From positions 35,618-99,617 of the forward strand of contig NZ_JAXMEM010000012.1 of assembly GCF_046348305.1 (NCBI RefSeq): a stretch of 64,000 nt of DNA, in the 5' to 3' direction. The notes beneath the pieces are model-generated. The model did no database searches. It was not told the DNA's origin and saw nothing but the letters and a program-made list of their open reading frames with translations. Source of the stretch: Ottowia sp. (GTDB taxonomy: Bacteria; Pseudomonadota; Gammaproteobacteria; Burkholderiales; Burkholderiaceae_C). This document shows positions 9,973 to 35,852 of the stretch, piece by piece (the stretch's first letter is position 1; every line of letters starts with the position of its first letter). The translations under genes were made by a program, and so were the position numbers.

Positions 9973-10098
9973 TCAAGCTCGCCCACCCTGCATCGACCTT
10001 GCGCAAAGTCCAAGCATTGTCATGGTGTCAGGGGATCCCGCCTGCGCCAGCTTGCCCGGGCGCAGATCGGACAACACGTTGCGGTCGATCAGGTACAC
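9973..10098 (-). pseudogene. Truncated VapC/PIN toxin (N-terminal fragment only)
   Basis: GTG 3 nt after antitoxin stop reads MYLIDRNVLSDLRPGK (PIN start consensus YLLDTNVLSEL), loses similarity and stops after 41 aa. Confidence 0.7.
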
Positions 10099-10100
10099 GC

Positions 10101-12382: not shown

Positions 12383-12391
12383 GAACCCATT

Positions 12392-12976: not shown

Positions 12977-13028
12977 GGCTGTACGCAGGTTGACGCAGCA
13001 GAAACAGCGTCCGGGACTTCAACCGTTG

Positions 13029-14018
13029 TCAAGCGACGGCGTCCGTCGCGGCCCCCTCCCCCGTCACCGCCCGCGTGGCCACGGCCTGCGCGGCCAGCCA
13101 GTCGGCGAAGGCCTTGACTTCGGCGCGCTGCGCGCTGTGGGGCGACACCATCACCCAGTACGCCATGGGCGAGACCAGGCGCGCGTTGGGATAGGCGTCG
13201 GGCGCAAACACCTCCACCAGCTCGCCGCGCGCCAGGCTCTCGGCCACCAGAGGCGGGCGCGCCAACACCACGCCCTGACCCGACATCGCCGCCTGCACCA
13301 TCTGGTAGGCGTAGTTGAAGCTGAGCCAGCGCTTGGGCTGCGACTGCGCCAGGCCATTGGCGTCCAGCCAGCGGCGCCACGTGAGCCAGGCCAAGTGGGG
13401 CGTGTAGGCGTCGGCCGCCTCGATCAGGGTGTGGGCCAGCAGGTCGGCGGGGGTCTTCAGGCGCGGGCCGCTTCTCAAAAGCCAGGGGCTGGCCATGGGC
13501 GTGACCAGCTCGCCAAACAGGCGGCGCGCCGCAGGCGGCATGCGGTCCGCGGGGGCGTAGCGCACGGCCACGTCGATGTCGGTCACCTCCAGGTCCACCG
13601 CGCTGTCGCTGGCCTCGATGCGGATGTCGATGTCGGGGTGCTCGCGCTGAAACGCCTCCAGCTTGGGGATCAGCCACATCGACGCGAACGAGGCAAAGGT
13701 GGTGACCGACACGTGCCGGCGCCCCGCGTTCTGGCGGATGTGGCGCACCGCGGCGTCGATGCGCGGCAGGGCCTGCCCCACCGCGCTGATCAGCTGGATG
13801 CCGGCCTCGGTCAGCTCGACCGCGCGCGTGTGGCGCAGGAACAGGGGCACGCCCACGTCGTCCTCCAGCGCCTGGATCTGGCGGCTGACGGCCGACTGCG
13901 TGAGCGCCATTTCCTCGGCCGCCAGGCGAAAGTTGAGGTGGCGCGCCACCGCCTCGAAGGCGCGCAAATGGCCGGCCTGGATGGGGCGCGAGCGCAGGTG
14001 GGTCTGGGAGTGCAGCAC
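13029..14018 (-). CDS. LysR-family regulator (GcvA-like)
   Basis: LRAFEAVARHLNFRLAAEEMALTQSAVSRQIQALE HTH; FASMWLIPKL. Confidence 0.92.
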   Translation of the reverse strand: MLHSQTHLRSRPIQAGHLRAFEAVARHLNFRLAAEEMALTQSAVSRQIQALEDDVGVPLFLRHTRAVELTEAGIQLISAVGQALPRIDAAVRHIRQNAGRRHVSVTTFASFASMWLIPKLEAFQREHPDIDIRIEASDSAVDLEVTDIDVAVRYAPADRMPPAARRLFGELVTPMASPWLLRSGPRLKTPADLLAHTLIEAADAYTPHLAWLTWRRWLDANGLAQSQPKRWLSFNYAYQMVQAAMSGQGVVLARPPLVAESLARGELVEVFAPDAYPNARLVSPMAYWVMVSPHSAQRAEVKAFADWLAAQAVATRAVTGEGAATDAVA

Positions 14019-14141
14019 AGCGAGATTGATGCAAATCGGGAATCAATAGCGTGGCGGGATTTCATTGGACTGTCAATGGGGATCGGCGCAACATGCAGCC
14101 ATCGGATTCATTCCCGATTCAATGCTTTCCAGGAGCCCGCC

Positions 14142-14528
14142 ATGTCTGATGTCAAGCTGCATTCCTCGCCCAGCCTGTCCCTGTCCCGGGGCGTCGGCGT
14201 GACGCTGCAGCCGGGCCAGGCACGCACCCTGCGCGTGCCGGCCGCCGGCCTGCTGCGTGTGACGCGCGGCGCGTTGTGGGTGACCCGGCACGGCGCGCGC
14301 GCCCAGCCGGCGCCCGATGACGTGTATGTGGCGGCCGGCCAGCCGCTGGCGCTGCGCGCGGGCGAGTCGGTGGTGATCGAGCCGATTCACCGAGGCGGCG
14401 AGCCGGCTGGCCCGGTGGCCCCGGCCGCCTTTTGCTGGCAGCCGGCCACCGGGCGCTGCGCCGGCGCGCTGCGCGCGTTCGCGGATCGCTTGGGTGCCTG
14501 GGTGCACGGCGCGCACGTTCGCGCGTGA
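14142..14528 (+). CDS. DUF2917-like protein divergent from LysR
   Basis: AGGAG RBS; LRVTRGALWVT...DDVYVAAGQPL..GESVVIE. Confidence 0.7.
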   Translation: MSDVKLHSSPSLSLSRGVGVTLQPGQARTLRVPAAGLLRVTRGALWVTRHGARAQPAPDDVYVAAGQPLALRAGESVVIEPIHRGGEPAGPVAPAAFCWQPATGRCAGALRAFADRLGAWVHGAHVRA

Positions 14529-17780: not shown

Positions 17781-20462
17781 ATGAGCATCCGCAACCTCGA
17801 CTCGCTGTTCCATCCGCAATCGGTGGCGATCATCGGCGCCTCCGAGCGGCCGTTTTCGGCCGGCGCCGCGCTGTGGCGCAACATGCACGCCAGCGGCTTC
17901 CAGGGCGCGCTCTGGCCGCTCAACCCCAAATACGAGCAGCTGGCCGGCCAGCGCTGCTATGCCCGCGTGCGCGATCTGCCCGGCGTGCCGGAGCTGGCCG
18001 TGATCTGCACCCCGCCCGCCACGGTGGACGATCTGATCCGGCAACTGGCCCAGGCCGGCACCAAGGCCGCCGTGGTCATCAGCGCCGGCCTCACGCCCGA
18101 GCAGAAGCAGGCCATGCTGGACGCCGCGCGCCCCCGGCTGCTGCGCATCCTGGGGCCCGACTGCGTGGGCCTGCTGGCGCCGCACGCGCACCTGAACGCC
18201 AGCATCGCGCCCGCCGCGGCCCAGCCGGGCCAACTGGCCCTGGTCTCGCAGTCCGACGCGCTGGTCACCGCCATGCTGGACTGGGCGCAGGCGCGCAGCA
18301 TCGGTTTTTCGCACTTTGTCGCACTGGGCGAGCACGCCGACGTGGACGCTGCCGACGTGCTGGACTACCTGGCCAGCGACGCGCACACGCGCGCCATCCT
18401 GCTGTGCATCGAATCGATCGAGCACGCGCGCAAGTTCATGTCGGCCGCGCGCGCGGCGGCGCGCAACAAGCCGGTCATCGTGCTCAAGGCCGGGCGCAGC
18501 GCGCCGGGACAACAGGCCGCCGCCTCGCACACCGGCGCGCTGGCCGGCGCCGATGCCGTGCATGAAGCGGCCATTGCCCGCGCCGGCATGCTGCGCGTGG
18601 ACAGCCTGGAGCAGCTCTTTCTGGCCGCCGAAATTCTCACCCGCTTCAAGGCGCCCGTCGGCGCGCACCTGAGCATCCTCACCAACGCCGGCGGCGCCGG
18701 CGTGCTGGCCGCCGACGCGGCGGCGGCGCATGGCCTGCGCCTGGCCGATCCGGGCGCTGCGCTGCGCGGCGAGCTGGCCGCGGTGCTGCCGCTCCGCAGC
18801 CCCCTCGGCAACCCGGTGACCCTCGCCGCCGACGCGCCCGCGCCGTGCTACGCGGACGCGCTGCGGGCGCTGGCACGCCACCCCGAGGACAGCGGCACGC
18901 TGCTGTTCATCCATGCGCCCACCGCCATCGTGCCGGCCGCCGACATCGCGCGCGCCATGATTCCCGTCGCCCACCCTGCGCAGCAGCACGCGCTGCCCCT
19001 GGTGGCGGCGTGGATGGGGGGCCCGGCCGTCGCCGAAGCGCGCCAGCTGTTCATGCAGGCCGGCACCGCCTGCTACGACATGCCCGAGCAGGCGGTGGCC
19101 GCCATCGGCATGCTGCACGACTACGCGCGCAACCAGGCCGAGCTGACCGAAGCGCCACCGGCCGCACCACCGGGCCAGCCCGCGCCCGACACCGCCGCCG
19201 TGCGCCGCCTGGTCGCCACCGCGCTGGCCGAGGGGCGATCGTGGTTGAGCGAGCCCGAGTCCAAGGCCGTGTGCGCGGCCTACGGCATCCCCGTGGTGGC
19301 CACCCACCGGGTCGCCCCCGAGCCCGAAGCCGCCGCCGACGAGGCGGCGCGCATCGGCTTTCCGGTGGTGCTCAAGATCGTGTCGGCCGACGTCACGCAC
19401 AAGTCGGACGTGGGTGGCGTGGCGCTCAACCTGCAGGACGCCCAGGACGTGCGCACCGCTGCGCAGACCATGCTCGCGCGCATCGCCAAGACCCACCCGC
19501 AGGCGCGGCTGGAGGGCTTTGCCGTGCAGGCCATGGTGCGCAAGCCGCAGGCGCAGGAGCTGATCGTCGGCGCCAGCATCGACCCCGGCTTCGGCCCCGT
19601 GATCCTGTTCGGCCAGGGCGGCACGGCCGTCGAGGTGCTCAGGGACAGCGCCATGGCGCTGCCGCCGCTGAACGCCCCGCTGGCGCGCGCACTGATCGAG
19701 CGCACCCGCGTGGCGCGCCTGCTGGCCGGCTGGCGCGACGTGCCCCCGGCCGACCTGGACGCCGTCATCGCGACGCTGATGGCCGTGTCCCAGCTGCTCG
19801 CCGACGTGCCCGAGCTGGCCGAGCTGGACATCAACCCGCTGCTGGTGGACCACGCCGGCGCCATTGCGCTGGACGCGCGCGTGGGCCTGAGCGCCGCGCA
19901 ACCCGCGGGCGCCCGCCACTTCGCCATCGCGCCCTATCCGGCCGATCTCATCGAGACGGTGCAGTGGCAAGGCCGCACGCTCACGCTGCGCCCGGTGCGC
20001 CCCGAGGACGAAGCGCAGCACCGCGCCTTTCTGGAAAGCCTGGATCCCGGCGACATCCGCCTGCGCCTGTTCTACACCCGCCGCTACATGGAGCGCAGCG
20101 AGCTGGCGCGCCTGGTGCAAATCGACTACACGCGCGAGATGGCCTTCATCGCCACCGCGCCCGACGAGAACGGCCGCGAGCAAACCCTGGGTGTGGCCCG
20201 CGCCAGCGCCGACCCGGACAACCAGGGCGCCGAGTTCGGCATCATCCTGCGCCACGGCTTGAAGGGCGCGGGCCTGGGCCGTCGGCTGATGGACAAGCTG
20301 ATCGGCCACTTCCGCGCCGCCGGCACGCGCGAGATGACCGCCGTGGTGCTCAAGGAAAACCGCGCCATGCGCGAGCTGGGCCACGCGCTGGGCTTTTCCG
20401 ACCAGCCCTCGCCGGACGACCCCGACATCCGGCTGCTGACGCTGGAGTTGCAGGCGCCCTGA
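17781..20462 (+). CDS. Acyl-CoA synthetase (NDP-forming)-like / ATP-grasp / GNAT fusion (Pat/PatZ-type protein lysine acetyltransferase)
   Basis: PQSVAIIGAS, ILGPDCVG, SHTGALAG, PVVLKIVSADVTHKSDVGG, ELDINPL, C-terminal GNAT (GAGLGRRL). Confidence 0.9.
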   Translation: MSIRNLDSLFHPQSVAIIGASERPFSAGAALWRNMHASGFQGALWPLNPKYEQLAGQRCYARVRDLPGVPELAVICTPPATVDDLIRQLAQAGTKAAVVISAGLTPEQKQAMLDAARPRLLRILGPDCVGLLAPHAHLNASIAPAAAQPGQLALVSQSDALVTAMLDWAQARSIGFSHFVALGEHADVDAADVLDYLASDAHTRAILLCIESIEHARKFMSAARAAARNKPVIVLKAGRSAPGQQAAASHTGALAGADAVHEAAIARAGMLRVDSLEQLFLAAEILTRFKAPVGAHLSILTNAGGAGVLAADAAAAHGLRLADPGAALRGELAAVLPLRSPLGNPVTLAADAPAPCYADALRALARHPEDSGTLLFIHAPTAIVPAADIARAMIPVAHPAQQHALPLVAAWMGGPAVAEARQLFMQAGTACYDMPEQAVAAIGMLHDYARNQAELTEAPPAAPPGQPAPDTAAVRRLVATALAEGRSWLSEPESKAVCAAYGIPVVATHRVAPEPEAAADEAARIGFPVVLKIVSADVTHKSDVGGVALNLQDAQDVRTAAQTMLARIAKTHPQARLEGFAVQAMVRKPQAQELIVGASIDPGFGPVILFGQGGTAVEVLRDSAMALPPLNAPLARALIERTRVARLLAGWRDVPPADLDAVIATLMAVSQLLADVPELAELDINPLLVDHAGAIALDARVGLSAAQPAGARHFAIAPYPADLIETVQWQGRTLTLRPVRPEDEAQHRAFLESLDPGDIRLRLFYTRRYMERSELARLVQIDYTREMAFIATAPDENGREQTLGVARASADPDNQGAEFGIILRHGLKGAGLGRRLMDKLIGHFRAAGTREMTAVVLKENRAMRELGHALGFSDQPSPDDPDIRLLTLELQAP

Positions 20463-20682: not shown

Positions 20683-21915
20683 ATGAACCCTTCCATGTTT
20701 CCGCGCGCCGCGCTGCTGGCCTTGTGCGCCGCCTGGGCGCTGCCCGGCGCGGCGCAGGACGCGCCCGCGCCCAGCCTCGACCCCGCCGAATTCAAGACCT
20801 GCCTGAGCCAGCTGCAGGGTACGCCGGCGTTTCGCGCCATCACGGCGCAGACCTTTGCCGAGCAGACCCGCACGCTCGCACCCGACCCCTCGGTGCTGGT
20901 GCTGCTCAATCGCCAGCCCGAGTTCACCATGCCGGTGTGGGACTACATGGCCGTGCTGGACGACGCCGAGCGCGTGCAGGACGGGCGGGCGGCCTTTGCC
21001 AAGTGGCAGGATGTGCTGCAAAAGATCGAGGCGCAGACGGGCGTGCCCGCCGCCATCATCACCGGCGTATGGGGCGTGGAGAGCAATTTCGGCCAGAACC
21101 TGGGCGGGCGCCCGCTGGTGCAGTCGCTGGCCACGCTGTCGTGCTTCGGGCGCCGGCAGGCCTACTTTCGCGGCGAGTTCGCGGCGGCGCTGCGCATCAT
21201 CCAGGAGGGCCACATCGCGCCCGACAAGCTGACCGGCTCCTGGGCCGGCGCGTTCGGGCAGACGCAGTTCATGCCCAGCACCTTTTTTGCCAACGCGGTG
21301 GACTTCGACGGTGACGGGCGGCGCGACATCGTGGACAGCGTGCCCGACGCGCTGGCCTCGACCGCCAAATTCCTGCAAAACGCCGGCTGGCGGCGCGGCG
21401 AGCCCTGGGGCTTTGAAGTGCGCCTGCCCAAGGGCTTCGACAGCTCGGGCGCAAGCCGCAAGGCCAAGCAGCCCATCGCCACCTGGCAGCGCGCCGGCCT
21501 GACGCTGGCGGATGGCCAGCCCCTGCCGGGCGATCTGCCCAGCGCCGGCCTGATGATTCCGGCCGCCGGCGGCCCGGCCTTTCTGGTAGGGCGCAACTTC
21601 GACGCGCTGTACCGCTACAACGCCAGCGAGAACTACGCCCTGGCCATCGCCCACCTGGCCGACCTGATCGCCGACCCGCAGGCGCCCCTGGCCTTTGCCA
21701 CGCCCTGGCCCACGGACGATCCGGGCCTGTCGCGCGCCGAGAACCGCGAGCTGCAAACCCTGCTGCTGGCGCGTGGCCACGACATCGGCACGGCCGACGG
21801 CATGATCGGCGCCAAGACGCGCGAGGCCATCAAGGCCGAGCAGCAAAGGCTGGGCGTCAAGGCCGACGGGCGCGCCGGCCAGAAGCTGCTGGCCGCGCTC
21901 AGAAAAGCGGATTGA
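20683..21915 (+). CDS. Lytic murein transglycosylase (MltB/SltB-like) with C-terminal PG-binding domain
   Basis: Signal peptide; WGVESNFG, GSWAGAFGQTQFMPS, YNASENYA, DGMIGAKTR. Confidence 0.92.
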   Translation: MNPSMFPRAALLALCAAWALPGAAQDAPAPSLDPAEFKTCLSQLQGTPAFRAITAQTFAEQTRTLAPDPSVLVLLNRQPEFTMPVWDYMAVLDDAERVQDGRAAFAKWQDVLQKIEAQTGVPAAIITGVWGVESNFGQNLGGRPLVQSLATLSCFGRRQAYFRGEFAAALRIIQEGHIAPDKLTGSWAGAFGQTQFMPSTFFANAVDFDGDGRRDIVDSVPDALASTAKFLQNAGWRRGEPWGFEVRLPKGFDSSGASRKAKQPIATWQRAGLTLADGQPLPGDLPSAGLMIPAAGGPAFLVGRNFDALYRYNASENYALAIAHLADLIADPQAPLAFATPWPTDDPGLSRAENRELQTLLLARGHDIGTADGMIGAKTREAIKAEQQRLGVKADGRAGQKLLAALRKAD

Positions 21916-23829
21916 TCACGAAGTCGATTCGGCGGCCGCCGCACGCGGCGCATTGAGCACGAAGGCATCGGAGAAACACGCGCCCTCTTCCAGCCCGTGC
22001 GACAAAAAGGCGGGCACCGCCGTCTGCACCATCATGGTGGAGCCGCAGGCGTACAGCTCCTGCCCGCGCATGTCGGGAAAGTCCTCCAGCACCGCCTGGT
22101 GCACCAGGCCGCGGCGGCCCTCCCAGCCGTCGCCCGGCGCGCCATCGGACAGCACCGGGATGAAGCGGAAGTTGGCGTGCTCGCACTGCCAGGTTTCGGC
22201 CAGATCGCGCATGTACAGGTCGGACACCTGGCGCACGCCCCAGTACAGGCGCATGGGCCGCGTGATGCCGCGCGCAAAGGCGTCCTCGATGATGCTCTTG
22301 ACGGGCGCAAAGCCCGTGGCCCCCGCCAGAAAGACGATGGGGCGCTCGCCTTCGCGCAGCGTGAAGCGCCCCAGCGGCCCCTCCAGGCGCAGCGTGTCGC
22401 CCACCTGCATGCCGTCGAACACATGGCCGGTGAAGCGCCCGCCCGGGATGCGCCGCACGTGCAGGTCGATCAGCGGGCGCTGCATCGGCGGGTTGGCAAA
22501 CGAGAAGGCGCGGCGCTCGCCGTCCTCCAGGATCACGTTCAGGTACTGGCCGGCGATGAAGTCCAGCTTCAGGTCGGCCGGGGGTTGCAGCAACAGGCGC
22601 ATCACCTCGGGCGCCAGGCGTTCCATGCTGACCACGGTGGCGCTGAACTCTTGCTTGATCAGGGGCTCCAGGGTTTCGACCTCGATCTCCAGGTCCTCCA
22701 GCGGCACGGCACAGCACATCAGCGCCTGGCCGCGCTCGCGCATGGCCTCGGTCAGCGTGGCGGGCTGATACGGGCCGTGGTCGAACTTGCCGTTGAGCAC
22801 CGTGCACACGCACAGCCCGCAGCCGCCGGCGCGGCAGTCGTATTGCAGCGGCAGCTCGGCGCGCAGGCCGGCCTCCAGGATGGTCTCGCCGCGGCGCGCC
22901 GACACGTGGCGCGCATCGGGATGCACGGTCACGTTCAGGGTGCGGGCCGCGCCGCCCGCGCGCCGCCACACCAGCCAGGGTTGCACCAGCAGCAGGCCGG
23001 TCACGCCCAGCACCAGCGCCCAGGTCCAGGCCGGCCCCCAGGCGTGCACCAGCGGGTACAGGCCCAGCAGCAGCCAGTCGAGCTTGAGCTGGCTGGGCAC
23101 CACGGCCATGTGCGCGGGGCCGCCCTGGCTGACGACGGGCAGCACCAGCGCCAGCACCAGCAGCATCACGCCGGCACTGACGGCGATCGGCTTGGGCGGC
23201 TGCATGGCCGCCTTGGGCACGCGCTGCACGTGCACCCACATCAGCAGCAGCGTGAGCAGCGGCACGCCGATGTGGATGAACACCAGCAGCGAAAACAGGC
23301 GATCGCTCACGGTGCTGTCGTAGATGAAGTTGCGGATCAGCGAGCCGCGGAACAGCGGAATCCAGTCCAGCCACTCGAAGCTGGTGGTGGTGACGAACTG
23401 GGCGAGCTGGTCCCAGGGCAGCATGTAGCCGTTGGCGCCGGCGGCATACACCAGCCAGATCAGCGCCACGCCCGTGACCCACGAGAACGCACGGAAGCCG
23501 CGCAGCCGGTCGAACGCGAAGTAGCGCAGCATGTGGATCACCATGGTCACCACCATGGCGTCCGAGGCGTAGCGATGCACGCTGCGCACGATGCCGCCGA
23601 TGAACCACTGCCGGTGCGTGAGCCCCTCCACCGACTGGTAGGCCCCCGTCACGCTGGTGTCGAAGAAGGCAAACAGGTACAGGCCGGTGCCGGCGACGAT
23701 CCAGAACAGGAAGAAGGTCAGCGGACCCAGGTGGTAGTAGGGGTTCAGGCGGTCGCCGAAGGCGCGGTTGAAGACCGCCTCCACCCGCATGAAGCCCCAG
23801 CGCATCAGCGCCTGCAGCCGACCGATCAT
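21916..23829 (-). CDS. Diheme cytochrome b fused to [2Fe-2S] ferredoxin and FAD/NAD(P)-binding reductase
   Basis: HRYASDAMVVTMVIH and HIGVPLLTLLLMWVH His pairs (14 apart), GYMLPWDQ; CRAGGCGLC...C; RRAFSFAN, AGATGFAP, YACG. Confidence 0.85.
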   Translation of the reverse strand: MIGRLQALMRWGFMRVEAVFNRAFGDRLNPYYHLGPLTFFLFWIVAGTGLYLFAFFDTSVTGAYQSVEGLTHRQWFIGGIVRSVHRYASDAMVVTMVIHMLRYFAFDRLRGFRAFSWVTGVALIWLVYAAGANGYMLPWDQLAQFVTTTSFEWLDWIPLFRGSLIRNFIYDSTVSDRLFSLLVFIHIGVPLLTLLLMWVHVQRVPKAAMQPPKPIAVSAGVMLLVLALVLPVVSQGGPAHMAVVPSQLKLDWLLLGLYPLVHAWGPAWTWALVLGVTGLLLVQPWLVWRRAGGAARTLNVTVHPDARHVSARRGETILEAGLRAELPLQYDCRAGGCGLCVCTVLNGKFDHGPYQPATLTEAMRERGQALMCCAVPLEDLEIEVETLEPLIKQEFSATVVSMERLAPEVMRLLLQPPADLKLDFIAGQYLNVILEDGERRAFSFANPPMQRPLIDLHVRRIPGGRFTGHVFDGMQVGDTLRLEGPLGRFTLREGERPIVFLAGATGFAPVKSIIEDAFARGITRPMRLYWGVRQVSDLYMRDLAETWQCEHANFRFIPVLSDGAPGDGWEGRRGLVHQAVLEDFPDMRGQELYACGSTMMVQTAVPAFLSHGLEEGACFSDAFVLNAPRAAAAESTS

Positions 23830-25253
23830 GCCGGCACCTCCATGGACCGGGCCCGCATGGCGCGCAGCACCACGACGACGAACAGCAGGCCGCCGATCAC
23901 GGCCAGCAGCCCGCCCAGGCCCATCAGGCCCATGCCGGCCACCTCGGCCGTGCTGCGCAGCACCTGCTCGCTGCCGGCCACCTTGCGCTGCACGCCATAG
24001 CCGCCCGACCAAACCAGGCCGATGATGTGCATCAGCTGCCCCGCGCCATACAGCCAGGGCTGCCACACCGCCATGCGCCCGCGCGGCGCGCTCCAGCCCA
24101 GCGTGGGCAGCAGGTGATAGACGATGCCCATCAGCGCCAGCGTGACGCCCACGATGCAGCCGTGGTAGTGCGCCGGAATCTTGACGTTGCTGCCGCTGAT
24201 CAGCATGCCGATCACGCCGCCGCAGGCGAACAGCAGCATGGAGCTGACCAGCGCGCCCCACAGCGGCCTTTGCTCATCGCGCAGCCGGCGCAGCGGCGCC
24301 AGTGCCAGCACCACGGCCAGCGCGATGGGAAAGATCGCCAGCCCGCCCCCAACGCGCATGGCCCAGGTGTGCAATTGGCGGTTTTCCACGCTGACGGCGT
24401 CATACGCCACATAGGCGTAGGGCGTGATGAACACGCTGACCAGCGCCAGCATGAGCAGCAGCAAGGCGATGCGCGGGCTCAGCAGCACCCGCCCGCCGCA
24501 GGCATGGGCCAGCCACAGCCACACCACCAGCATCAGCAGCGTCCAGGCAAACTGCAAGGCGTGGCCACCGCCCCAGAAGAGGATCTCGTAATAGGTGCGC
24601 AAATCCATGCGGGTGGGCACCGCGGCAAACGACCAGGCAAAGGCCAGCAGCGCCACGGCCACGCACACCACGCTGGCACTCAACCCGAAGCGCAGCGCGC
24701 GCTCGCCGTCGATCACGCCGCCCAGGCGCGGGGCGGCCAGCAGGCTGCGCAGCACCTGCACGCCCAGGCCCAGGCCAAAGACGACCAGCCCGGCCAGGAA
24801 CAGCGGCCCGTGCAACACCGGGATGTAGTTGGCCATGATGGCCTCGCCCGGGCGGATGAAGGCGCCCAGCGCCATCAGCACCGTGCCGCTGCCGCACAGG
24901 CCCAGGGCGGCCCAACTCCAGCCGAGGCCGCGCTCGGTGGTGTTCAGGCTCCACAACATGCCCGCCATGGCGGCAAACCACACCAACACCGACAAATCCA
25001 CGTGCACCACCAGTGCCACGCGAAAAAAGTCGGCAACCGGAAACCACTGGTTGACGCCCGGCGTGCGCGCCAGCACCAGCAGCACCGAATAGAGGCCCGA
25101 GCCAGCCAGCGCCGCCAGCCCCAGCGCCAACCAGGCCCGCGCCAGCGCGCGCTGGGCGGTGGTGGGCTGCGGCAAGGTGTAGGCGGCAGGCTCTGCCGTG
25201 CGCGGCGCGTACAGCGCGTGGGGATCGAAAATGGCTTGTGCAGGGTGATTCAT
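23826..25253 (-). CDS. Heme-copper oxidase subunit I-like paralog with degenerate binuclear site
   Basis: ~12 TM; LVVHVDL, ILFWGGGHALQF, IPAHYHG; only one His (QLHTW) where the HH pair is expected. Confidence 0.75.
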   Translation of the reverse strand: MNHPAQAIFDPHALYAPRTAEPAAYTLPQPTTAQRALARAWLALGLAALAGSGLYSVLLVLARTPGVNQWFPVADFFRVALVVHVDLSVLVWFAAMAGMLWSLNTTERGLGWSWAALGLCGSGTVLMALGAFIRPGEAIMANYIPVLHGPLFLAGLVVFGLGLGVQVLRSLLAAPRLGGVIDGERALRFGLSASVVCVAVALLAFAWSFAAVPTRMDLRTYYEILFWGGGHALQFAWTLLMLVVWLWLAHACGGRVLLSPRIALLLLMLALVSVFITPYAYVAYDAVSVENRQLHTWAMRVGGGLAIFPIALAVVLALAPLRRLRDEQRPLWGALVSSMLLFACGGVIGMLISGSNVKIPAHYHGCIVGVTLALMGIVYHLLPTLGWSAPRGRMAVWQPWLYGAGQLMHIIGLVWSGGYGVQRKVAGSEQVLRSTAEVAGMGLMGLGGLLAVIGGLLFVVVVLRAMRARSMEVPA

Positions 25254-25336
25254 ATCAATCTTCCAGGGTGCTGCCAAGCGCCGGGGGCGCCGCAAACCCA
25301 AAGCGCCCATTGGCCGCCGAGCGGGCCATGACAGCG

Positions 25337-25406
25337 AACGCCGTGGCCGGACCTGCGCCGGCCACAGGCGTTGCCCCTCCTCCAGGCGCAGCGCCAGAGA
25401 GGAGGG
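25337..25406. repeat. Two GC-rich intergenic hairpins inside the respiratory cluster
   Basis: AACGCCGTGGCCGG/CCGGCCACAGGCGTT (25337-25372); CCCTCCTC/GAGGAGGG (25375-25406). Confidence 0.65.
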
Positions 25407-25436
25407 AAGGCGCGCAGCGACGCAGGGAGGTGTTCA

Positions 25437-25970
25437 TTAGAACGTGATGCCGCCCTTCTCGGCGTTGTAGTCGATCACCAGGACTTGATTGGGTTTGAGC
25501 GTCACCGTGTCCTCGAGCTGCGCCGTGAAACCCGGAGCGCGTGCGTCGTCCTTCATGCGAACGGCAATTTTTTGTTCCCCGGCCGGCACCTGGACCCGCC
25601 GATATACCGCGGAGGCGCCATCGCGCTTCAGGCCACTGGGCTCGGCCGTCTCTTGCAGCACGCGCCGGCCGTTGATGTCCACCTCGATGCTGACGGGCGA
25701 GCGCTCGCGCGGGCAAATCTGCTTGGGACGCATCTGCGGGGGCAGCTTGGCCTTTTCTTCCTCGGTCAGGGGGCGGCAGTCGCCCACCGGCTTGCCGGTG
25801 TGCGTGAAGCTGATCTTGATCAGCGCATCGCCCGGCGGCAGCGGGTGGTAGACGGGCCAGTGCGAGAACACGCCGATGAACACGGCAAACAAGACGTACA
25901 GCAGCGCCTGGCCCAGCCATGCCCCCACGGAAACGCGATGGCGCGAAGGATCGACGGTGGAGGCATTCAT
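25437..25970 (-). CDS. Membrane-anchored hypothetical protein, coupled to the cytochrome b-MvhD gene
   Basis: One N-terminal TM, two Cys (DCRP, QICPRERSP); ATG overlaps upstream stop. Confidence 0.7.
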   Translation of the reverse strand: MNASTVDPSRHRVSVGAWLGQALLYVLFAVFIGVFSHWPVYHPLPPGDALIKISFTHTGKPVGDCRPLTEEEKAKLPPQMRPKQICPRERSPVSIEVDINGRRVLQETAEPSGLKRDGASAVYRRVQVPAGEQKIAVRMKDDARAPGFTAQLEDTVTLKPNQVLVIDYNAEKGGITF

Positions 25971-27562
25971 GTGGACAACTCGAGGGCGGATGGGGTGCGC
26001 TCGCGCGCCGACTGCGGGCCGCGCCAACGATCGAGGATGGGTGCGATGGCATCGGCATCCCGCGCACCGGACCAGACCATGGCCCAGCGTTCGCGCGGCA
26101 CGGTGGGCCGCAGGCGGGGCTCGCGCACGCCGTGCAGGCGCTCGTGCAACAGCGTGGCGCCGTCGCGGAACGCGCAGTGGCCGGGCGCGCACGCCTGCAC
26201 GAGCACGCCGGCGGCGCCGTCGCGCAGCGCGTATTCGACGAAGGCGGGCGGCAACTGGCCGACGCACAGCAATTCGATGGCCACCACGTCGGGCGCCAGC
26301 AGGCAGGCCGGCGGCGGCACGTGGGCGCAGCGAAAGGCCACGATGGATCGGGCCGCGGGCGCAGCCTGCAGCCGCTGGCGCAACTGCTCGCGCAGTGTGT
26401 TGACCGGCAACTGCGGCATGTCGATGCCGCTTTGCAAATCGGCCACGCTGCGAAATGGCGTCGCCGATGGGCAGGCGCCGGCGCAGATGCCGCAGCGCGC
26501 GCAGCGCTCGGCATCGACCACGGCCAGCTCATGACCGGGCTTGCCGCTGGGGTGCGCGACCATGCCGATGGCGGCGTAGGGGCAGTCATCGACGCAGCGC
26601 CGGCAGCCGCTGCAATAGTCGGGATCGACCCGGGCCGCGGGCGCGTCCTCGCGGCGGTGCGGCATGAAGGGCAGCCACAGCAGACCGGCCAGGGCGCCAC
26701 CCAGCACAACCCAGGCGAGCCCGCCCGACAGCGCGTCGGCCATGGGGTGGACAAACAGCAGCAACCAGTCCAGCCGCAGCGCGGCGGGCACCCGGGTCAT
26801 GTCGGCCGCCGGACCGCTGACCACGGGCGTCACGGTGGCCAGCCCCACGAACATGGCCAGCAGACCCAGGGCCAGCGGCTGCGGCGGCACGACGCGCGCG
26901 CGCGGCAGGCGCTGGATGTGAAACCACAGTCCGAACGTCATCAGCAGCGCCACGCCCAGATGCACGAAGACGAACAGCGAGAACAGGCGGTCGCCCACCG
27001 TGTCCAGCGACAGGAAGTTGCGCGCCAGCGGCGTGGTCAGCCCCGGCAGGGCGTCCAGCCATTCGGCGGTGGCCAGGGCCGAGTACTGGCCCAGCTCGTC
27101 CCAATTGAGCCAGAAGCCGCCGATGCCGCAGACAAAGGCAAACACGATGAGCGGCACGCCGGTGAGCCAGCTGAAGCGGTGATGGGCGCGAAAGCGCCCA
27201 TGCAGCCATTCGCGCAACGCGTGCAGGCCCATCAGCAGCACGAAGGCATCGGCCGCGTAGCGATGCACGCTGCGCAGCCAGCCACCGTAGAACCAGGGCC
27301 ACGCGGCCAGGCGCTCGATCGAGGCGTGGGCGCCGGCGGCCGAGGTGTCGATGACGGCGTACAGGTAAATGCCGCTGGCCGCCAGCGTCCAGAAGCACAG
27401 AAAGGCCATGCTGCCCAGGTGATGCAGCGGATTGAGCGCCGGCCACGTCCAGCGGTCGATGCCGCGCTCGAGCGCTTGCCAGGCAGCCAGGGCGCGCCCT
27501 GGCGCTGCCGGAGCCCCGGCGCGGCGCGGCACCGGCGCGGGCAGGACAGCGGCGGCATTCAA
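25967..27562 (-). CDS. Diheme cytochrome b fused to 2x[4Fe-4S] ferredoxin and MvhD/FlpD-like domain
   Basis: TTG start overlapping SCO stop; HRYAADAFVLLMGLH, HLGVALLMTFGLWFH; CSGCRRCVDDCP, CARCGICAGACP; IVAFRC..LLCVGQ..GVLVQACAPGHCAF. Confidence 0.82.
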   Translation of the reverse strand: MNAAAVLPAPVPRRAGAPAAPGRALAAWQALERGIDRWTWPALNPLHHLGSMAFLCFWTLAASGIYLYAVIDTSAAGAHASIERLAAWPWFYGGWLRSVHRYAADAFVLLMGLHALREWLHGRFRAHHRFSWLTGVPLIVFAFVCGIGGFWLNWDELGQYSALATAEWLDALPGLTTPLARNFLSLDTVGDRLFSLFVFVHLGVALLMTFGLWFHIQRLPRARVVPPQPLALGLLAMFVGLATVTPVVSGPAADMTRVPAALRLDWLLLFVHPMADALSGGLAWVVLGGALAGLLWLPFMPHRREDAPAARVDPDYCSGCRRCVDDCPYAAIGMVAHPSGKPGHELAVVDAERCARCGICAGACPSATPFRSVADLQSGIDMPQLPVNTLREQLRQRLQAAPAARSIVAFRCAHVPPPACLLAPDVVAIELLCVGQLPPAFVEYALRDGAAGVLVQACAPGHCAFRDGATLLHERLHGVREPRLRPTVPRERWAMVWSGARDADAIAPILDRWRGPQSARERTPSALELST

Positions 27563-28455
27563 TGCAGGGCCTCCGCAGGCACCGGTGCGCTCCGGCGCAC
27601 TTGCCGGCGGGCGCGCCGATGGCGCCGCCATTCGAGCACGAAGTACCCGATCATCCACACGAAGAACACCATGCCGCCAACGATCTCCATCACCAGCGCG
27701 TACTTGAAGCGGTAGGTGCCGGTCTCCGGGTCGTATACGGTGCACAGGATGCGCACGCGTTCGAGCAGGCCGGCCAGCGTCTCGCGCTGGGTGACGGGCG
27801 CGCGGCCCAGCAGCTGGCGCAGTGGCTCGCCGAGCTGCTGCGCCGTCAGTTGGTCGCCCCAGACCTGGGTGGCGATCTTGCCCTCGGCATCCAGCACGGT
27901 GACGCCCAGGATGTGATCGAAGCCCGCCGGCGTGGCCAGGTAGCTGAAGCCGAAGCTGCGCGTGAGCGGCTCCACGATCTTGGCGTGCGGGCTGAGGAAC
28001 TCCCAGTTGGGGTACTTGATGCCGTACTGCGCGGCAAACGAGCGCAGCGCCACCGGCGAGTCGGCCGGCTGGTTGAAGCCGATGCTGACGACGTTGAACT
28101 GGCCCGGGCTGAGCAGCTGGTCCAGCCCCTTGACGGCTTCGTGCAGGTTGCGCGTGCTGGTGGGACAGATCTCGAAGCAGCCGGTGTAGATGAAGCTCAC
28201 CAGCAACGGCTTGCCCCGGTATTGGGACAGCCGCACCGGCTTGCCCTGGCGGTCGAGCAAGGTGAAGTCGGGCGGCGTCGTGCCGATCACGGCCTGGCCG
28301 GCGGCCAGCGCGGCGGTGGCGTCCAGGCGGGGCACGGTGCTGGCCACGGCGTCGTCCGCCTGCGCCCATCCGGCGGCGCCCAGCAGGGGGAGCACGCCTG
28401 CCAGCGTCCACAGCATGCGTTGCACACGCTGGGCCAGCCCGGTCACCGCTTTCAT
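27559..28455 (-). CDS. SCO-family copper chaperone with C-terminal TM extension
   Basis: YTGCFEICP CxxxC, conserved His in GFDHIL, thioredoxin fold. Confidence 0.88.
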   Translation of the reverse strand: MKAVTGLAQRVQRMLWTLAGVLPLLGAAGWAQADDAVASTVPRLDATAALAAGQAVIGTTPPDFTLLDRQGKPVRLSQYRGKPLLVSFIYTGCFEICPTSTRNLHEAVKGLDQLLSPGQFNVVSIGFNQPADSPVALRSFAAQYGIKYPNWEFLSPHAKIVEPLTRSFGFSYLATPAGFDHILGVTVLDAEGKIATQVWGDQLTAQQLGEPLRQLLGRAPVTQRETLAGLLERVRILCTVYDPETGTYRFKYALVMEIVGGMVFFVWMIGYFVLEWRRHRRARRQVRRSAPVPAEALH

Positions 28456-28513
28456 CCGCACGTTCAAGCTCCGAACCGCCACGGCCAGCGCCGCGGCGAT
28501 CAACGGGCCACGC

Positions 28514-30214
28514 TCAACTGAGGCCCCACAGGGTGGACAGGTACTTCCAGTTGATGAAGTAGTACAGCACGAAGGCCACCAGGAACACCATGGCCAGCAC
28601 GAAGGTGCCGGGGGCCGCAAAACCGGCCGAACCGGCGGTTTGCGCCACCACGGTGGGGGCGGTGCGCGGGATCGGCGTGAAGGTGGCGCGCTCGGCGCCG
28701 CGTTCGAGCTTCTTGCCCCACAACAGCGAACCGACGGTGACGTAAATGTAGATCGCGCCACCGGCAATTGCCGCCACGCCGCCGATGCCCACCAGGCCCA
28801 TCATCAGGTAGGCGGCGCCCGGCCATTCGTAGGCCAGCGGGTTGCCGCTGAAGGCCATGTCCCAGTGGCGACGCGACACGCCCAGGGTGCCGGCGCCCAT
28901 CATCACCAGGCAGAAGAAGTACATCGAGAAGCCGAAGATGTACGGTTGCCACTTGGCCAGCTTGGGCGCGATCATCTCGCGCTTGAACAGCACCGGGATC
29001 AGGTAATACGTCAGCGCCATGAAAGTCAGCGTGGTGCCCACGACGACGGTGGCGTGAAAGTGGCCCGGCACATAGATCGTGTTGTGGATAATCATGTTGA
29101 GCTGCTCGGTGCCCATCATCACGCCCGAGATGCCGCCCAGGAAGCCAAAGCCGATGATCGAGATGAACACGCCCGAGAACGTGGGGTTGCCCCAGGGCGC
29201 CTTGCGCAGCCACTCGAACAGGCCCTTGGTGAAGCCCTTTTGCCGCTGCGCCACTTCCATCGCGCCGGGCACCGTCAGGCCGTGCAGCATCGAGGCCAGC
29301 ACCGCGAAGTACATGAAGTAACTGGTGTTGACGATCTTCCAGGGCGTGGACAGGCCCGGGTCGGCCAGCAGGTGGTGTGCGCTGGCCAGCTGGAGGAACA
29401 AGATGTAGAGCAAAAACGCCGTGCGGCTGACGCGCTCGCTCATCGGCTTGGCGCCGAAGACGACCGCTGCCACCAGATACCACACCGAGATGTGCGCGGC
29501 CACGTTGATCTGCTGCGAGGAGTGTCCCAGCGCCCACCAGATGGTGCGGTAGGCCAGCGGATCGACCTGCTTGATCAGGCCGATGGACATCAGCCAGGTC
29601 GGGATCAGGATGATGGCGCCCGACAGCAGGGTGAACACCGCAATGATGGCCGCCGTGATGGCGCCCATGGTGACCAGCGGCACCGAGCCCTGATAGGTGC
29701 GGTCGCGCTTGGCGACGACCAGGGTGCCGAAGAACACGCCGCATCCGATCAGCGCGCCGACGGCGAACAGGATGATGGTCAGATAGAACCAGGACGAGGC
29801 CATCATGGGCACGTAGCTGGTCATCATGACGCTGGAGCTGCCCTGGAACACGACGATGTTGTTGCCCACCGAGCCGATCACCATCAGCGCAAAGGCCAGC
29901 CAGGCGAGCTTGGGTGTGGCAATGCGGCAGCGCAGCAAGGTGGAGGCGCAGAAGTACAGGATGGCGATCTCAAAGAAGATCAGCCAGAAGATCAGCATGT
30001 CCAGGCCATGGGCCGTGAGCACCATGTAGAAGGTGTCGGCCTCCAGCCAGTGCACCGCCGGCCAGCGCGTGAGCACCACGCCGATGGCCAGCAGGCCGCC
30101 GAAGGCCAAGAACAGCACGCCGGCGACGGCGTTCCACATGATGAGTTTTTCGGCCTGCGCTTCAAATTGCAGGCCCGATCGCGGGCAGGTGCGATAGGTG
30201 GTGGCTTGTCCCAT
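28514..30214 (-). CDS. Heme-copper oxidase superfamily subunit I, B-family-derived, eNOR-like (Gln at cross-link Tyr position)
   Basis: TAHG, WWALGHSSQQ, SAHHL, PGHFHAT: all six His present; H+4 residue is Q, not Y. Confidence 0.85.
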   Translation of the reverse strand: MGQATTYRTCPRSGLQFEAQAEKLIMWNAVAGVLFLAFGGLLAIGVVLTRWPAVHWLEADTFYMVLTAHGLDMLIFWLIFFEIAILYFCASTLLRCRIATPKLAWLAFALMVIGSVGNNIVVFQGSSSVMMTSYVPMMASSWFYLTIILFAVGALIGCGVFFGTLVVAKRDRTYQGSVPLVTMGAITAAIIAVFTLLSGAIILIPTWLMSIGLIKQVDPLAYRTIWWALGHSSQQINVAAHISVWYLVAAVVFGAKPMSERVSRTAFLLYILFLQLASAHHLLADPGLSTPWKIVNTSYFMYFAVLASMLHGLTVPGAMEVAQRQKGFTKGLFEWLRKAPWGNPTFSGVFISIIGFGFLGGISGVMMGTEQLNMIIHNTIYVPGHFHATVVVGTTLTFMALTYYLIPVLFKREMIAPKLAKWQPYIFGFSMYFFCLVMMGAGTLGVSRRHWDMAFSGNPLAYEWPGAAYLMMGLVGIGGVAAIAGGAIYIYVTVGSLLWGKKLERGAERATFTPIPRTAPTVVAQTAGSAGFAAPGTFVLAMVFLVAFVLYYFINWKYLSTLWGLS

Positions 30215-30224
30215 GGTGCGTCCC

Positions 30225-30767
30225 TCAGTCCTTGATGTACATGCGGCCCACCATGGTGTGGTGGCCAATTCCACAGAACTCGTTGCACACGATCGAGATC
30301 TGGCCCGACTGGTTGGGCGTGATGGTCAGCACGTGCTCGAAGCCCGGCACCAGCTGGATGTTGATGTTCTGCGGCTGCAGCGAGAAGCCGTGGTTGTAGT
30401 CCATGGCCGTCAGATGCAGGCGGTATTTCTCGCCCTTCTTCAGCTCCAGGATGGGCCAGAAGTTCCACAGCCGGCCCAGCATGTAGACGTCGCTGCCCGG
30501 CGGCGGGGCCACCACGGGCGTGTTTTGCTCGCCTTCGGTGCGCACCGTGTACTTGTCGACCACGGCCTGCGCCTTGGCCGTGAACTTCTCGGGCGTGGTG
30601 CGGTAGGTCTCGGTCGACAGGTTCTGGTTGCCCCAGACGTGCCAGCCGACCATCATGACGAACATGATCAGGCACCAGGTCAGCGACAGCACGATCCACG
30701 TGCCTTCGACCCGGTCGATGGGATGCTTGTACCAAAGCCGCTCGGGCGGCGGAAGAATGGCGCTCAT
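30225..30767 (-). CDS. Heme-copper oxidase subunit II with CuA site
   Basis: Single TM; DYNHGF and CNEFCGIGHHTM CuA motif; no CxxCH. Confidence 0.92.
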   Translation of the reverse strand: MSAILPPPERLWYKHPIDRVEGTWIVLSLTWCLIMFVMMVGWHVWGNQNLSTETYRTTPEKFTAKAQAVVDKYTVRTEGEQNTPVVAPPPGSDVYMLGRLWNFWPILELKKGEKYRLHLTAMDYNHGFSLQPQNINIQLVPGFEHVLTITPNQSGQISIVCNEFCGIGHHTMVGRMYIKD

Positions 30768-30807
30768 GGTGTGGAACCTCGGGGTGGAAAGGCGATCGGA
30801 CCGGGGC

Positions 30808-30972
30808 TTACTTGCCCAGGGGCAGCATCATGATTTCGACCACGCCCCACAGGTTGTAGACCAGCATGGGAATCAGCACGCCCAGGAACAGCAGGATGAA
30901 GGGGCTGTCCAGCAACTGCTGCATCCAGGGAATGGGTTCGTTGGGGTCGTTCAGGTCGTCTTTCTGGCTCAT
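30808..30972 (-). CDS. Small single-TM oxidase subunit (IIa-like, 54 aa)
   Basis: MSQKDDLNDPNEPIPWMQQLLDSPFILLFLGVLIPMLVYNLWG; first gene of operon; GGAGGG RBS. Confidence 0.7.
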   Translation of the reverse strand: MSQKDDLNDPNEPIPWMQQLLDSPFILLFLGVLIPMLVYNLWGVVEIMMLPLGK

Positions 30973-31052
30973 GGATCCCTCCGGTGGAAAACCCGCGCCC
31001 AAGCGGACGCGGGGAGGCTCGCCCATTCTCGAGTAACCCACTCGGGATTGAT

Positions 31053-31066
31053 TTGACTTAGTTCAA
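31053..31066. promoter_or_regulatory. FNR/DNR/NnrR-type binding site
   Basis: TTGACTTAGTTCAA matches TTGA-N6-TCAA; lies between the oxidase operon and divergent ctaA-like gene. Confidence 0.7.
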
Positions 31067-31121
31067 TGTTTGGCGCCGCGGCCCGGCGGGCCGGCCGGAC
31101 GTCGCGCTACGATCGCGCGCC

Positions 31122-32066
31122 ATGACGCCCACCGCCCCCAGCGCCAGCAGCCCCCCGTCCGACCCCGACGCGCGCGATCCGGCACGCCGACTGCGCCGCA
31201 TGGCCCGGCTGTGCGCCGCGCTGGTGCTGGCGATCATCACGCTCAGCGCGTGGCTGCGCCTGGCCCGATCCGGCATTGGCTGCGCGGACTGGCCGGCCTG
31301 CTACGGAGCGGTGTGGCAAGCGGCCGCCCCCGCGCTGCCGGCCGGCGCCGAGACGTCCGCCACGGTTCTCGCCGTGCGGCTGGCGCACCGCGTGCTGGCG
31401 GTGGCCGCGCTGGTCTTGATCGTCGTCATGCTGGCCAGCGCGTGGCCGCCGCGCCGGCACGGGTGGCGACCGGCGCTGGAAGCCGGCGCGCTGCTGGCCG
31501 TCACCCTGGGCCTGGCCGTGCTGGGGGCCCTGGGCGCGCAGTCGCTGCTGCCGGCGGTGGCGCTGGGCAACCTGCTGGGCGGCTTTGCCATGCTGGCCCT
31601 CAGCCTGCGCCTGGCCAGTGGCCGGCCCATCGACGCCGGAACCGGCGCTCGCGTCTGGCTATGGGCCGCGTTCGGGCTGGTGCTGCTGGAAACCGCACTG
31701 GGCGGCCTGGCCAGCGCCAGCGGTTCCCTGCTGGCCTGCGACGGCCTGAGCGATTGCTGGGCAGAGGCACAGGACGGGCCCGCATGGAGCGCGCTGAACC
31801 CCTGGCACGCCCCAGCGCTTGGCGGCGGCGCCGGCGTGCAATGGGCGCACCGGCTGGGCAGCTGGCTCGTGCTCTTGCTGGCTGCGCCGCTGGCCTGGCG
31901 CCTGCGCCCGCACGATCGGCGCGGCGCCGCGGCTGTGCTGGCCTGCCTGCTGCTGCAAGCCGCACTGGGGCCGCTGATGGCGAGCGCCGGCTATCCGATG
32001 GCGCTGGTGCTGGCGCACAACGTGCTGGCGGCCTTCACGCTGGCCTTGCTGGCACGCTGGCTCTGA
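31122..32066 (+). CDS. COX15/CtaA-family heme A synthase-like protein
   Basis: GCADWPAC, LAHRV, ACDGLSDC, WAHRLG, LAHNV; 8 TM pattern. Confidence 0.8.
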   Translation: MTPTAPSASSPPSDPDARDPARRLRRMARLCAALVLAIITLSAWLRLARSGIGCADWPACYGAVWQAAAPALPAGAETSATVLAVRLAHRVLAVAALVLIVVMLASAWPPRRHGWRPALEAGALLAVTLGLAVLGALGAQSLLPAVALGNLLGGFAMLALSLRLASGRPIDAGTGARVWLWAAFGLVLLETALGGLASASGSLLACDGLSDCWAEAQDGPAWSALNPWHAPALGGGAGVQWAHRLGSWLVLLLAAPLAWRLRPHDRRGAAAVLACLLLQAALGPLMASAGYPMALVLAHNVLAAFTLALLARWL

Positions 32067-32080
32067 GATTGACCCGCCGG

Positions 32081-32521
32081 CTACTTCTTGCCCTTCATCA
32101 GCGCCTGCAAGCTGGCCATGTTCTCCTGCATGCGCTGCTGCACCACCTTCCAGGCGTCGGTGCGGGTCTTGGTCTCCAGCGCGGCCAGTTCCTGGAAGTC
32201 CTTCATGGCCTTCTTCATGCCGCGTTGCAACACCTCGCCCTGCTTGGCCATCGCGTCCTTGTCCAGCGCGCCTTTCATCGACTCCTGCAGGGCGGCCAGG
32301 TTCTCGCGCAGGATGGCGCTGCGCCGCTCGGCCAGCGCCTTCATGCCCTCATAGGCCTGGCGATTGGCCTCGGCCAGGGCCTCGAAGTCCTTGCGCTGCC
32401 ATTCGACCAGCGCGCTCGCGTCCACGCCGGGCAGCTTGAACTGCTTGAGCGTCTTGGTGAGTTCGCCCAAATCGGGCATGCCGGGCGCGGCGGCAGATGA
32501 CTTCTTGGTGCTTGTGGCCAT
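32081..32521 (-). CDS. Phasin-family protein
   Basis: FKLPGVDASALVEWQRKDFEALAEANRQAYEG; helical, Lys/Ala-rich. Confidence 0.8.
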   Translation of the reverse strand: MATSTKKSSAAAPGMPDLGELTKTLKQFKLPGVDASALVEWQRKDFEALAEANRQAYEGMKALAERRSAILRENLAALQESMKGALDKDAMAKQGEVLQRGMKKAMKDFQELAALETKTRTDAWKVVQQRMQENMASLQALMKGKK

Positions 32522-32567
32522 GACGATCCTCCAGGGGCGGGTTGAAAAACGGTGGGAATGACAGACG

Positions 32568-34151: not shown

Positions 34152-34175
34152 GGCTTGGTGTCCAGGGACTGGGGA

Positions 34176-35848: not shown

Positions 35849-35852
35849 GATG

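Follow-up and report, generated by a model that had tools for sequence, protein, structure and literature searches.

A cytochrome b that carries an NAD(P)H-oxidising module on the same polypeptide raises the question of which way its electrons flow and which partner takes them up. Such a protein is encoded in the window analysed in this study, a stretch of 64,000 nucleotides from Ottowia sp. (contig NZ_JAXMEM010000012.1, positions 35,618 to 99,617), in which an open reading frame (ORF) of 637 aa on the minus strand (21916-23829 of the window) joins a cytochrome b to a [2Fe-2S] ferredoxin and to an FAD/NAD(P)H reductase of the ferredoxin-NAD(P) reductase (FNR) type. The fusion gene is a conserved member of the cluster encoding the nitric oxide (NO) reductase eNOR, and it is translationally coupled to the adjoining gene for a heme-copper-oxidase-like protein. 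We propose, with what we consider an even chance of being right, that its product is a membrane-integral NAD(P)H electron-input protein dedicated to the eNOR cluster. Its architecture is a new combination of known modules, which is widespread and expressed and has been noticed in one preprint.

Architecture, topology and distribution of the fusion

The ATG start of the fusion gene overlaps the preceding gene's stop codon (ATGA), and a GGAGG lies 8 nt upstream. Its N-terminal module is a cytochrome b with six predicted transmembrane (TM) helices (aa 1-295, 22945-23829), followed by a plant-type [2Fe-2S] ferredoxin domain (aa 300-386, 22672-22932), an FAD-binding domain (aa 394-490, 22360-22650) and an NAD(P)H-binding domain with a C-terminal tail (aa 497-637, 21919-22341), all on the minus strand. 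All four Pfam domain calls exceeded their gathering scores, including Cytochrome_B (PF00033) at residues 26-202 (2.9e-19, 70.1 bits against a cut-off of 27.2), Fer2 (PF00111) at residues 301-376 (4e-13, 49.6 bits against 21), FAD_binding_6 (PF00970) at residues 397-489 (1e-13) and NAD_binding_1 (PF00175) at residues 500-604 (7e-19). The same scan gave no Ferric_reduct match, and the heme domain belongs with cytochrome b/b6.

Residue conservation was judged in two alignments, of 11 and 48 homologues. The four heme ligands (H85/H99 and H186/H200, each pair spaced by 14 residues) were invariant in both, together with the [2Fe-2S] ligands of the motif CRAGGCGLC...C (C332-x4-C337-x2-C340...C372) and with the reductase motifs R440-x-x-S443 (here R440-A-F-S443), G503-A-T-G-F-A-P509, C595-G596 and the C-terminal F623. 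The position of the PEWY motif is occupied by L250-D251-W252-L253, which departs from the P[E/D]W[Y/F] Qo motif of functional bc1 and b6f complexes; D251 and W252 are invariant, and the homologues of the 11-sequence alignment read L/F-D-W-L/F/V, with only the Asp and the Trp retained. Invariant as well is His33 (codon 23731-23733, context YHLG), which occupies the place of the heme-cn cysteine (CxGG) of three-heme cytochrome b6, a residue not present in the fusion; it could be part of a Qi-like site or make contact with the [2Fe-2S] domain.

The best sequence match of the heme domain in the PDB was cytochrome b6 (E = 3e-21), with bc1 cytochrome b less close, and the helix-D histidines are spaced as in bc1. 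The C-terminal half resembles the NADH-oxidising three-domain reductases GcoB (5ogx, 35% identity), NqrF, T4moF, BenC and Fre, and in a Foldseek comparison the FNR part matched Fre (1qfj) with a TM-score of 0.91. Among the NCBIfam equivalogs, the protein scored below every cut-off (BenC 181 against 430, Fre 176 against 230, MmoC 166 against 500, NqrF 108 against 295). An earlier note made from the letters of this DNA had placed the ORF at exactly these coordinates, and the His pairs 14 apart, the LDWL, the CRAGGCGLC..C motif and the FNR domain that it described were all found here, with the Pfam domains in the order it had predicted. Its description of the cytochrome b as bc1-type holds for the helix-D spacing, whereas the sequence as a whole is nearer to b6 than to bc1.

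An AlphaFold2 model built from 48 homologues (65-92% identical) was weak, with a mean predicted local distance difference test score (pLDDT) of 68, a predicted template modelling score (pTM) of 0.49 and values below 50 in the Fer2 domain, and the geometry between the domains was therefore left unused. The secondary structure of the model placed the TM helices at residues 30-54, 75-105, 114-136, 176-202, 213-229 and 266-286. Counting Lys and Arg gave 13-14 in the predicted cytoplasmic segments against 4 in the three predicted periplasmic loops, thus the N-terminus and the Fer2-FNR module are predicted to be cytoplasmic, a location that the earlier note had supposed for the FNR domain. On this topology, heme bH on the cytoplasmic side would be bound by H99/H200, and heme bL on the periplasmic side by H85/H186. 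About 10 residues separate helix F from the [2Fe-2S] domain, a tether short enough that the domain should be held at the membrane surface near bH. The best-conserved parts of the protein include the periplasmic cd and ef loops and the cytoplasmic N-terminal and post-helix-D segments, and such strong conservation on both membrane faces fits what would be expected for electrons passing through.

More than 120 protein clusters at the 90% identity level, at least 60% identical to the fusion, share its five Pfam domains, and at the 50% identity level the full-length architecture reduces to about two clusters, thus the family is compact. When one genome per species was scanned, at least 546 genomes encoded a relative, and the best 80 of these matched over essentially the full length with 57-94% identity. 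The carriers of these best 80 are mostly Burkholderiales (Rubrivivax, Ottowia, Giesbergeria, Polaromonas and Accumulibacter, with Simplicispira lacusdiani and Castellaniella sp. S9 among the isolates), with a minority in Steroidobacteraceae, Woeseiaceae and Lysobacterales. In independent activated-sludge metagenomes, one contig contains the whole gene (21700-23936) and another crosses the junction of cytochrome b and Fer2 (21905-23292). An assembly error, a possibility that the earlier note had raised, or a frameshift fusion is ruled out by these spanning contigs and by the full-length conservation.

The gene is also covered by metatranscriptome contigs. In three of four metatranscriptome assemblies, the contig depth over the genes of eNOR subunits I and II was about 5-10 times that over the downstream accessory genes (compared within 21500-31200), depth being a poor measure of expression; the excess may reflect internal attenuation or a second promoter.

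The eNOR gene cluster

The fusion gene is the last of seven co-directional genes on the minus strand, which encode, in order, a CuA subunit, eNOR subunit I, SCO1, a paralogous cytochrome b, a 177-aa protein (p177), the oxidase-like protein and the fusion. The first two genes (28514-30767) are labelled "cytochrome c oxidase", and eNOR-type genes are often annotated as oxygen reductases. By its motifs, the pair is an eNOR-type NO reductase: subunit II (30225-30767) is a cupredoxin with the CuA motif CNEFCGIGHHTM, and subunit I (28514-30214), a protein of 566-586 aa, is a heme-copper oxidoreductase related to the B family, in which the HH and HxH motifs are retained and helix VI reads GHSSQQ where oxidases read GHPxVY. 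This segment aligns to GHPVVY of 7deg_A, with Gln in place of the cross-link Tyr, and Gln at that position is diagnostic of eNOR (PMC8756737). eNOR is a characterised NO reductase with a heme A-type cofactor, and a CtaA homologue occurs in many eNOR operons (PMC11214002). In the window, a sequence-divergent CtaA/COX15-type heme A synthase is encoded at 31122-32066 on the plus strand, divergently transcribed from the cluster.

Neighbourhoods were counted in 62 related loci that extend at least 8.5 kb upstream. Genes for p177 and for the oxidase-like protein were each present in 61 loci, eNOR I, eNOR II and SCO1 in 60 each, and the paralogous cytochrome b in 58, with four loci lacking the paralogue. 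A UbiA-type heme O synthase, a member of the conserved cluster that is absent from the cluster of the window, was found in 54 of the 62, and CtaA in 38. No Rieske subunit and no cytochrome c1 or f was found in the cluster of the window or in those of two other loci (L001 and L082). At the start of L001 (1-1835), upstream of the eNOR genes, lie three short ORFs that match CtaA/COX15, one truncated by the end of the locus (at least 162 aa) and two of 186 and 255 aa; they may represent heme A synthases that are split or of half size.

The stop codon of the oxidase-like gene (23826-25253, 475 aa) overlaps the start codon of the fusion gene in the window and in 60 of 75 loci overall. The oxidase-like protein, named "cbb3-type cytochrome c oxidase subunit I" in the sources, is homologous to eNOR subunit I (hhalign probability 99.7%). 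In the numbering of the 494-aa maximal ORF starting at 25310, the residues that ligate the two hemes (H103, H381, H383) are retained, as is one CuB His (H250), the helix-VII His-His pair is replaced by Y298/A299 (Tyr/Ala in 74 orthologues), and Q253, Y300, E309 and R311 are conserved. From this ligand pattern, the protein probably binds two hemes and lacks a canonical CuB or FeB site. A PDB sequence search with it gave no match, and the homologue search listed only close relatives (67% identity or more).

The paralogous cytochrome b (25967-27564, minus strand) has a likely TTG start that overlaps the SCO1 stop. Its heme part is 45% identical to the cytochrome b module of the fusion and is joined to two [4Fe-4S] motifs and a FlpD/MvhD-like domain, with a resemblance to the C-terminal portion of HdrA2. 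The periplasmic motifs WD-L-Q, EWLD and LDW are common to both paralogues and resemble a quinol (Qo) pocket. The paralogue likewise has a His at the position of His33. Between the paralogue and the oxidase-like gene lies p177 (25437-25970, minus strand), which has one N-terminal TM helix, matches no known family and has an ATG overlapping the stop of the gene upstream (ATGA). SCO1/SenC (27559-28455, minus strand), with the CxxxCP motif and His of copper chaperones, continues at its C-terminus into a conserved extension (C-x-x-YD...G-x-YR) and then a TM helix; to our knowledge, canonical Sco proteins have no such extension.

In a Candidatus Accumulibacter locus (L075), the oxidase-like gene (12082-14214, minus strand) encodes a protein with a C-terminal AhpC/TSA-Redoxin (Sco/TlpA-like) domain and is convergent to the genes for the cytochrome b with Fer4-FlpD, for p177 and for the cytochrome b-FNR fusion. 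No eNOR I or II gene was found within 10 kb of this set, thus the two cytochrome b proteins, p177 and the oxidase-like protein constitute a unit of their own. In the eNOR-type cluster of L082, the same kind of cytochrome b is instead fused to a CysJ-like flavodoxin-FAD-NADPH module; this fusion adjoins NnrS and a Crp/Fnr-type regulator, with PCuAC and CtaG also in the cluster. It looks as though one NAD(P)H-oxidising module had been swapped in place of the other. The two cytochrome b genes of L082 (3695-5506 with Fer4-FlpD, 10001-12484 with the CysJ-like diflavin reductase) are 100% identical over about 870 nt of DNA and diverge exactly at the domain junction, which could stem from a recent duplication, from gene conversion or from ambiguity in the assembly path.

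The same operon has been described for Ferrigenium straubiae in a 2026 preprint, in which the oxidase-like gene is called an "eNOR scaffold protein of unknown function", both cytochrome b fusions are reported from the proteome, and a quinol:NAD+ oxidoreductase coupled to NO reduction is proposed (bioRxiv 10.64898/2026.01.22.701106). Its "Cytbc1CCC-like protein 1" (IMG 2878407319) has the same domains as our fusion (cytochrome b, Fe-S, FAD and NADH), and the operon shares eNOR II and I, heme O synthase, Sco1, the scaffold protein and a second cytochrome b with Fe-S clusters, but differs from the cluster of the window in gene order. The preprint regards these genes as unusual and as possible Ferrigenium markers, whereas relatives occur in the at least 546 species genomes found here, the best 80 of which, largely Burkholderiales plus some Gammaproteobacteria, match at full length.

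Direction of electron flow, acceptor and role

We propose that the cytoplasmic FNR-type domain would take hydride from NAD(P)H onto FAD, from which single electrons would pass to the tethered plant-type [2Fe-2S] cluster, then to heme bH at the cytoplasmic face and on to heme bL at the periplasmic face. Heme bL would in turn reduce the two-heme, CuB-less oxidase-like protein, or quinone, in the service of eNOR assembly or operation; the reducing power would either be spent on building eNOR (its heme A-type cofactor, its Cu or Fe centres) or power a reaction at the high-spin heme of the partner that depends on NAD(P)H. Flow from NAD(P)H to heme is rather probable, because this class of reductase module works that way, because the reverse path would be uphill by several hundred mV with ordinary b-heme potentials, and against the membrane potential, and because L082 has another NAD(P)H-oxidising module in its place. 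More tentatively, and with somewhat less than an even chance, the oxidase-like protein would be the acceptor; it is the most probable partner because of the conserved translational coupling and because the hemes of an oxidase lie near the periplasmic side, within reach of heme bL. A role in maturation is possible rather than probable, and is favoured because of the company of assembly genes, the Sco/TlpA-like fusion in Accumulibacter and the precedent of Yah1/Arh1 and Cox15 discussed below.

The earlier note had pictured a single-chain conduit from NAD(P)H to the membrane, a picture that fits the architecture, the invariant ligands and the predicted topology but that missed the eNOR context. 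With regard to the roles it had suggested, membership of the eNOR cluster lowers the likelihood of general respiration and raises that of a supply of reductant for maturing hemes or metal sites, or for a dedicated partner.

Several considerations weigh against an input protein dedicated to eNOR. The Qo-like periplasmic motifs of both paralogues would make quinone an equally natural acceptor, and eNOR has a CuA electron entry of its own and no need of the fusion for catalysis. According to the Ferrigenium preprint, the scaffold gene is common in eNOR operons and the cytochrome b genes are unusual (bioRxiv 10.64898/2026.01.22.701106), and the scaffold may work without the cytochrome b proteins. 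The direction of flow rests on typical heme potentials, the weak AlphaFold2 model fixes no distance between the [2Fe-2S] cluster and heme bH, and the L082 fusion is a single case whose cytochrome b is identical in its DNA to that of the neighbouring gene.

The alternative that survives best, although we consider it unlikely, is the main idea of the earlier note, namely an NAD(P)H:quinone oxidoreductase in which bL would reduce ubiquinone in the periplasmic Qo-like pocket, or in which quinone would be reduced at a Qi-like site near His33, and electrons would reach eNOR from the quinone pool by way of bc1 and cytochrome c. Such a reaction would be strongly exergonic judging from established redox potentials, the cd- and ef-loop architecture of b6 and subunit IV is preserved with correct spacing and with the PWD, EWLD and LDW motifs invariant, and motifs common to both paralogues point to a shared small ligand instead of a specific protein partner. 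On the other hand, the Pro and Tyr of PEWY are lost, periplasmic reduction of quinone by cytoplasmic electrons would dissipate proton-motive force for no obvious benefit, and these bacteria already have ordinary NADH dehydrogenases. The near-absolute linkage to the oxidase-like protein, p177 and assembly genes, and the coupling to the first of these, would also be left unexplained.

It is also conceivable, but quite improbable in our view, that the fusion serves maturation without the oxidase-like protein, its hemes passing electrons to the heme b of CtaA that faces the periplasm, much as Cox15 is supplied by ferredoxin and its reductase, or reducing Cu(II) or Fe(III) for SCO1/CuA and the active-site metal of eNOR in the manner of a NOX/FRE metalloreductase. 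The yeast heme A synthase Cox15 needs a [2Fe-2S] ferredoxin and a ferredoxin reductase, Yah1/Arh1 (PMC7140478), and both O2 and electrons are required for making the heme A-type cofactor of eNOR (PMC11214002). The uncharacterised genes are interleaved with those for heme O synthase, CtaA and SCO1, joined in L082 by PCuAC and CtaG; in seven loci, the CtaA match begins no more than about 200 nt from the end of the match to the fusion, on the same strand; and the Accumulibacter variant of the oxidase-like gene carries the Sco/TlpA-like domain. Yet CtaA accompanies the fusion at 38 of the 62 loci against 61 each for the oxidase-like gene and p177, and the periplasmic loops of the fusion show no sign of a metal-binding site.

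Electron flow in the opposite direction, as in the preprint, is highly doubtful. A plain quinol:NAD+ oxidoreductase is rejected on energetic grounds, since by standard potentials the reaction would be uphill by about 400 mV and would also run against the membrane potential. The sole energetically workable form of that proposal would be bifurcation, in which quinol is oxidised at the Qo-like site and one electron goes to the oxidase-like protein or eNOR, and ultimately to NO, whereas the other passes through bL and bH to the [2Fe-2S] cluster and FAD and yields NAD(P)H, or through the Fe-S chain of the paralogue perhaps reduced ferredoxin. The bc-type cytochrome b scaffold with its Qo-like pocket would suit this scheme, and so would the HdrA/MvhD-like Fe-S modules of the paralogue, which are typical of low-potential electron transfer, and the very high potential of the NO/N2O couple; the quinol-to-NAD+ direction has been proposed for the Ferrigenium orthologue, and anammox bacteria have cytochrome bc complexes that include cytoplasmic Fe-S subunits binding NAD(P) (PMC5600118). 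Against it stand the Fer2-FNR module, which belongs to an NADH-oxidising class, the NADPH-oxidising diflavin reductase that takes its place in L082, and the fact that neither a Rieske protein nor another obvious high-potential one-electron acceptor that could dock at Qo is encoded in the cluster. Most carriers, moreover, belong to taxa known as heterotrophic sludge and soil bacteria, which have no need for reverse electron flow. An extended version, in which both Rieske-less cytochrome b proteins would form a bc-like dimer with the oxidase-like protein and act as a quinol-based electron-bifurcating machine driven by NO reduction, is in our judgement more doubtful still.

Relation to known systems and further genes of the window

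Comparison with characterised systems places the fusion between several families. With cytochrome b6 and the cytochrome b of bc1 (PF00033) it shares a homologous four-helix, two-heme core with four His ligands, and with cytochrome b6f in particular the cd loops (GY-LPWDQ), two further helices corresponding to helices E and F of subunit IV, and an acidic-Trp motif at the PEWY position. It differs from bc1 and b6f in having LDWL for PEWY, a His for the heme-cn cysteine and only six helices with a cytoplasmic reductase fused C-terminally, and in a cluster that lacks Rieske and cytochrome c1/f. The order and motifs of its reductase domains match those of NqrF of Na+-NQR, BenC, GcoB, T4moF and Fre. 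NqrF is also membrane-anchored and injects NADH electrons into a membrane complex, but the anchor of the fusion is a two-heme cytochrome b, where these reductases have a single helix or none.

The proposed route from cytoplasmic NAD(P)H through flavin and stacked transmembrane b hemes to an acceptor on the outer side resembles that of NOX/FRE and of MsrQ-Fre (PMC5676040, PMC12525009), whose heme domains have an unrelated fold and to which the fusion adds a [2Fe-2S] step. In anammox Rieske/cytochrome b complexes, a bc-type cytochrome b likewise anchors a cytoplasmic NAD(P)-linked module, but there the subunits are separate, Rieske and multiheme cytochromes are present, the NAD(P) subunit is of another family, and the function is also unsettled (PMC5600118). 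Yah1/Arh1 with Cox15 offers a parallel in that an NAD(P)H-dependent reductase and a [2Fe-2S] ferredoxin serve heme A synthesis, and the loci of the fusion encode CtaA and heme O synthase; the yeast proteins, on the other hand, are soluble matrix proteins with an adrenodoxin-type ferredoxin and another reductase fold, and the pairing of the fusion with CtaA is hypothetical. The direction in the Ferrigenium preprint, from quinol to NAD+, is the opposite of the one favoured here, and both are proposals.

eNOR-type NO reductases are common in wastewater denitrifiers, polyphosphate accumulators and iron oxidisers and bear on the emission of nitrous oxide (N2O), and in at least the 60 eNOR-linked loci examined here they are accompanied by a fixed set of four uncharacterised membrane redox proteins, the fusion included. 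If electrons from NAD(P)H do reach the oxidase-like protein or cofactor assembly, this would be a new way to power or to build an enzyme of the heme-copper family, and might explain the electron source for bacterial heme A synthesis or for the metal centres of eNOR. If reverse bifurcation were true, it would represent a new mechanism of energy conservation, in which denitrification directly yields low-potential reductant. In the fusion, nature also offers a case of a bc-type cytochrome b anchoring a cytoplasmic dehydrogenase, a state that has been proposed as ancestral for bc complexes.

A scan of ten other large ORFs in the window returned only housekeeping functions and no further denitrification genes. 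Beyond CtaA lies a storage-lipid group on the minus strand (32081-36341), with a phasin, a WS/DGAT wax-ester/triacylglycerol synthase, a class III PhaC-like polyhydroxyalkanoate synthase and a second phasin-like ORF. At 17781-20462 on the plus strand, an 893-aa ADP-forming acyl-CoA synthetase with a C-terminal GNAT domain resembles Pat-type protein acetyltransferases.

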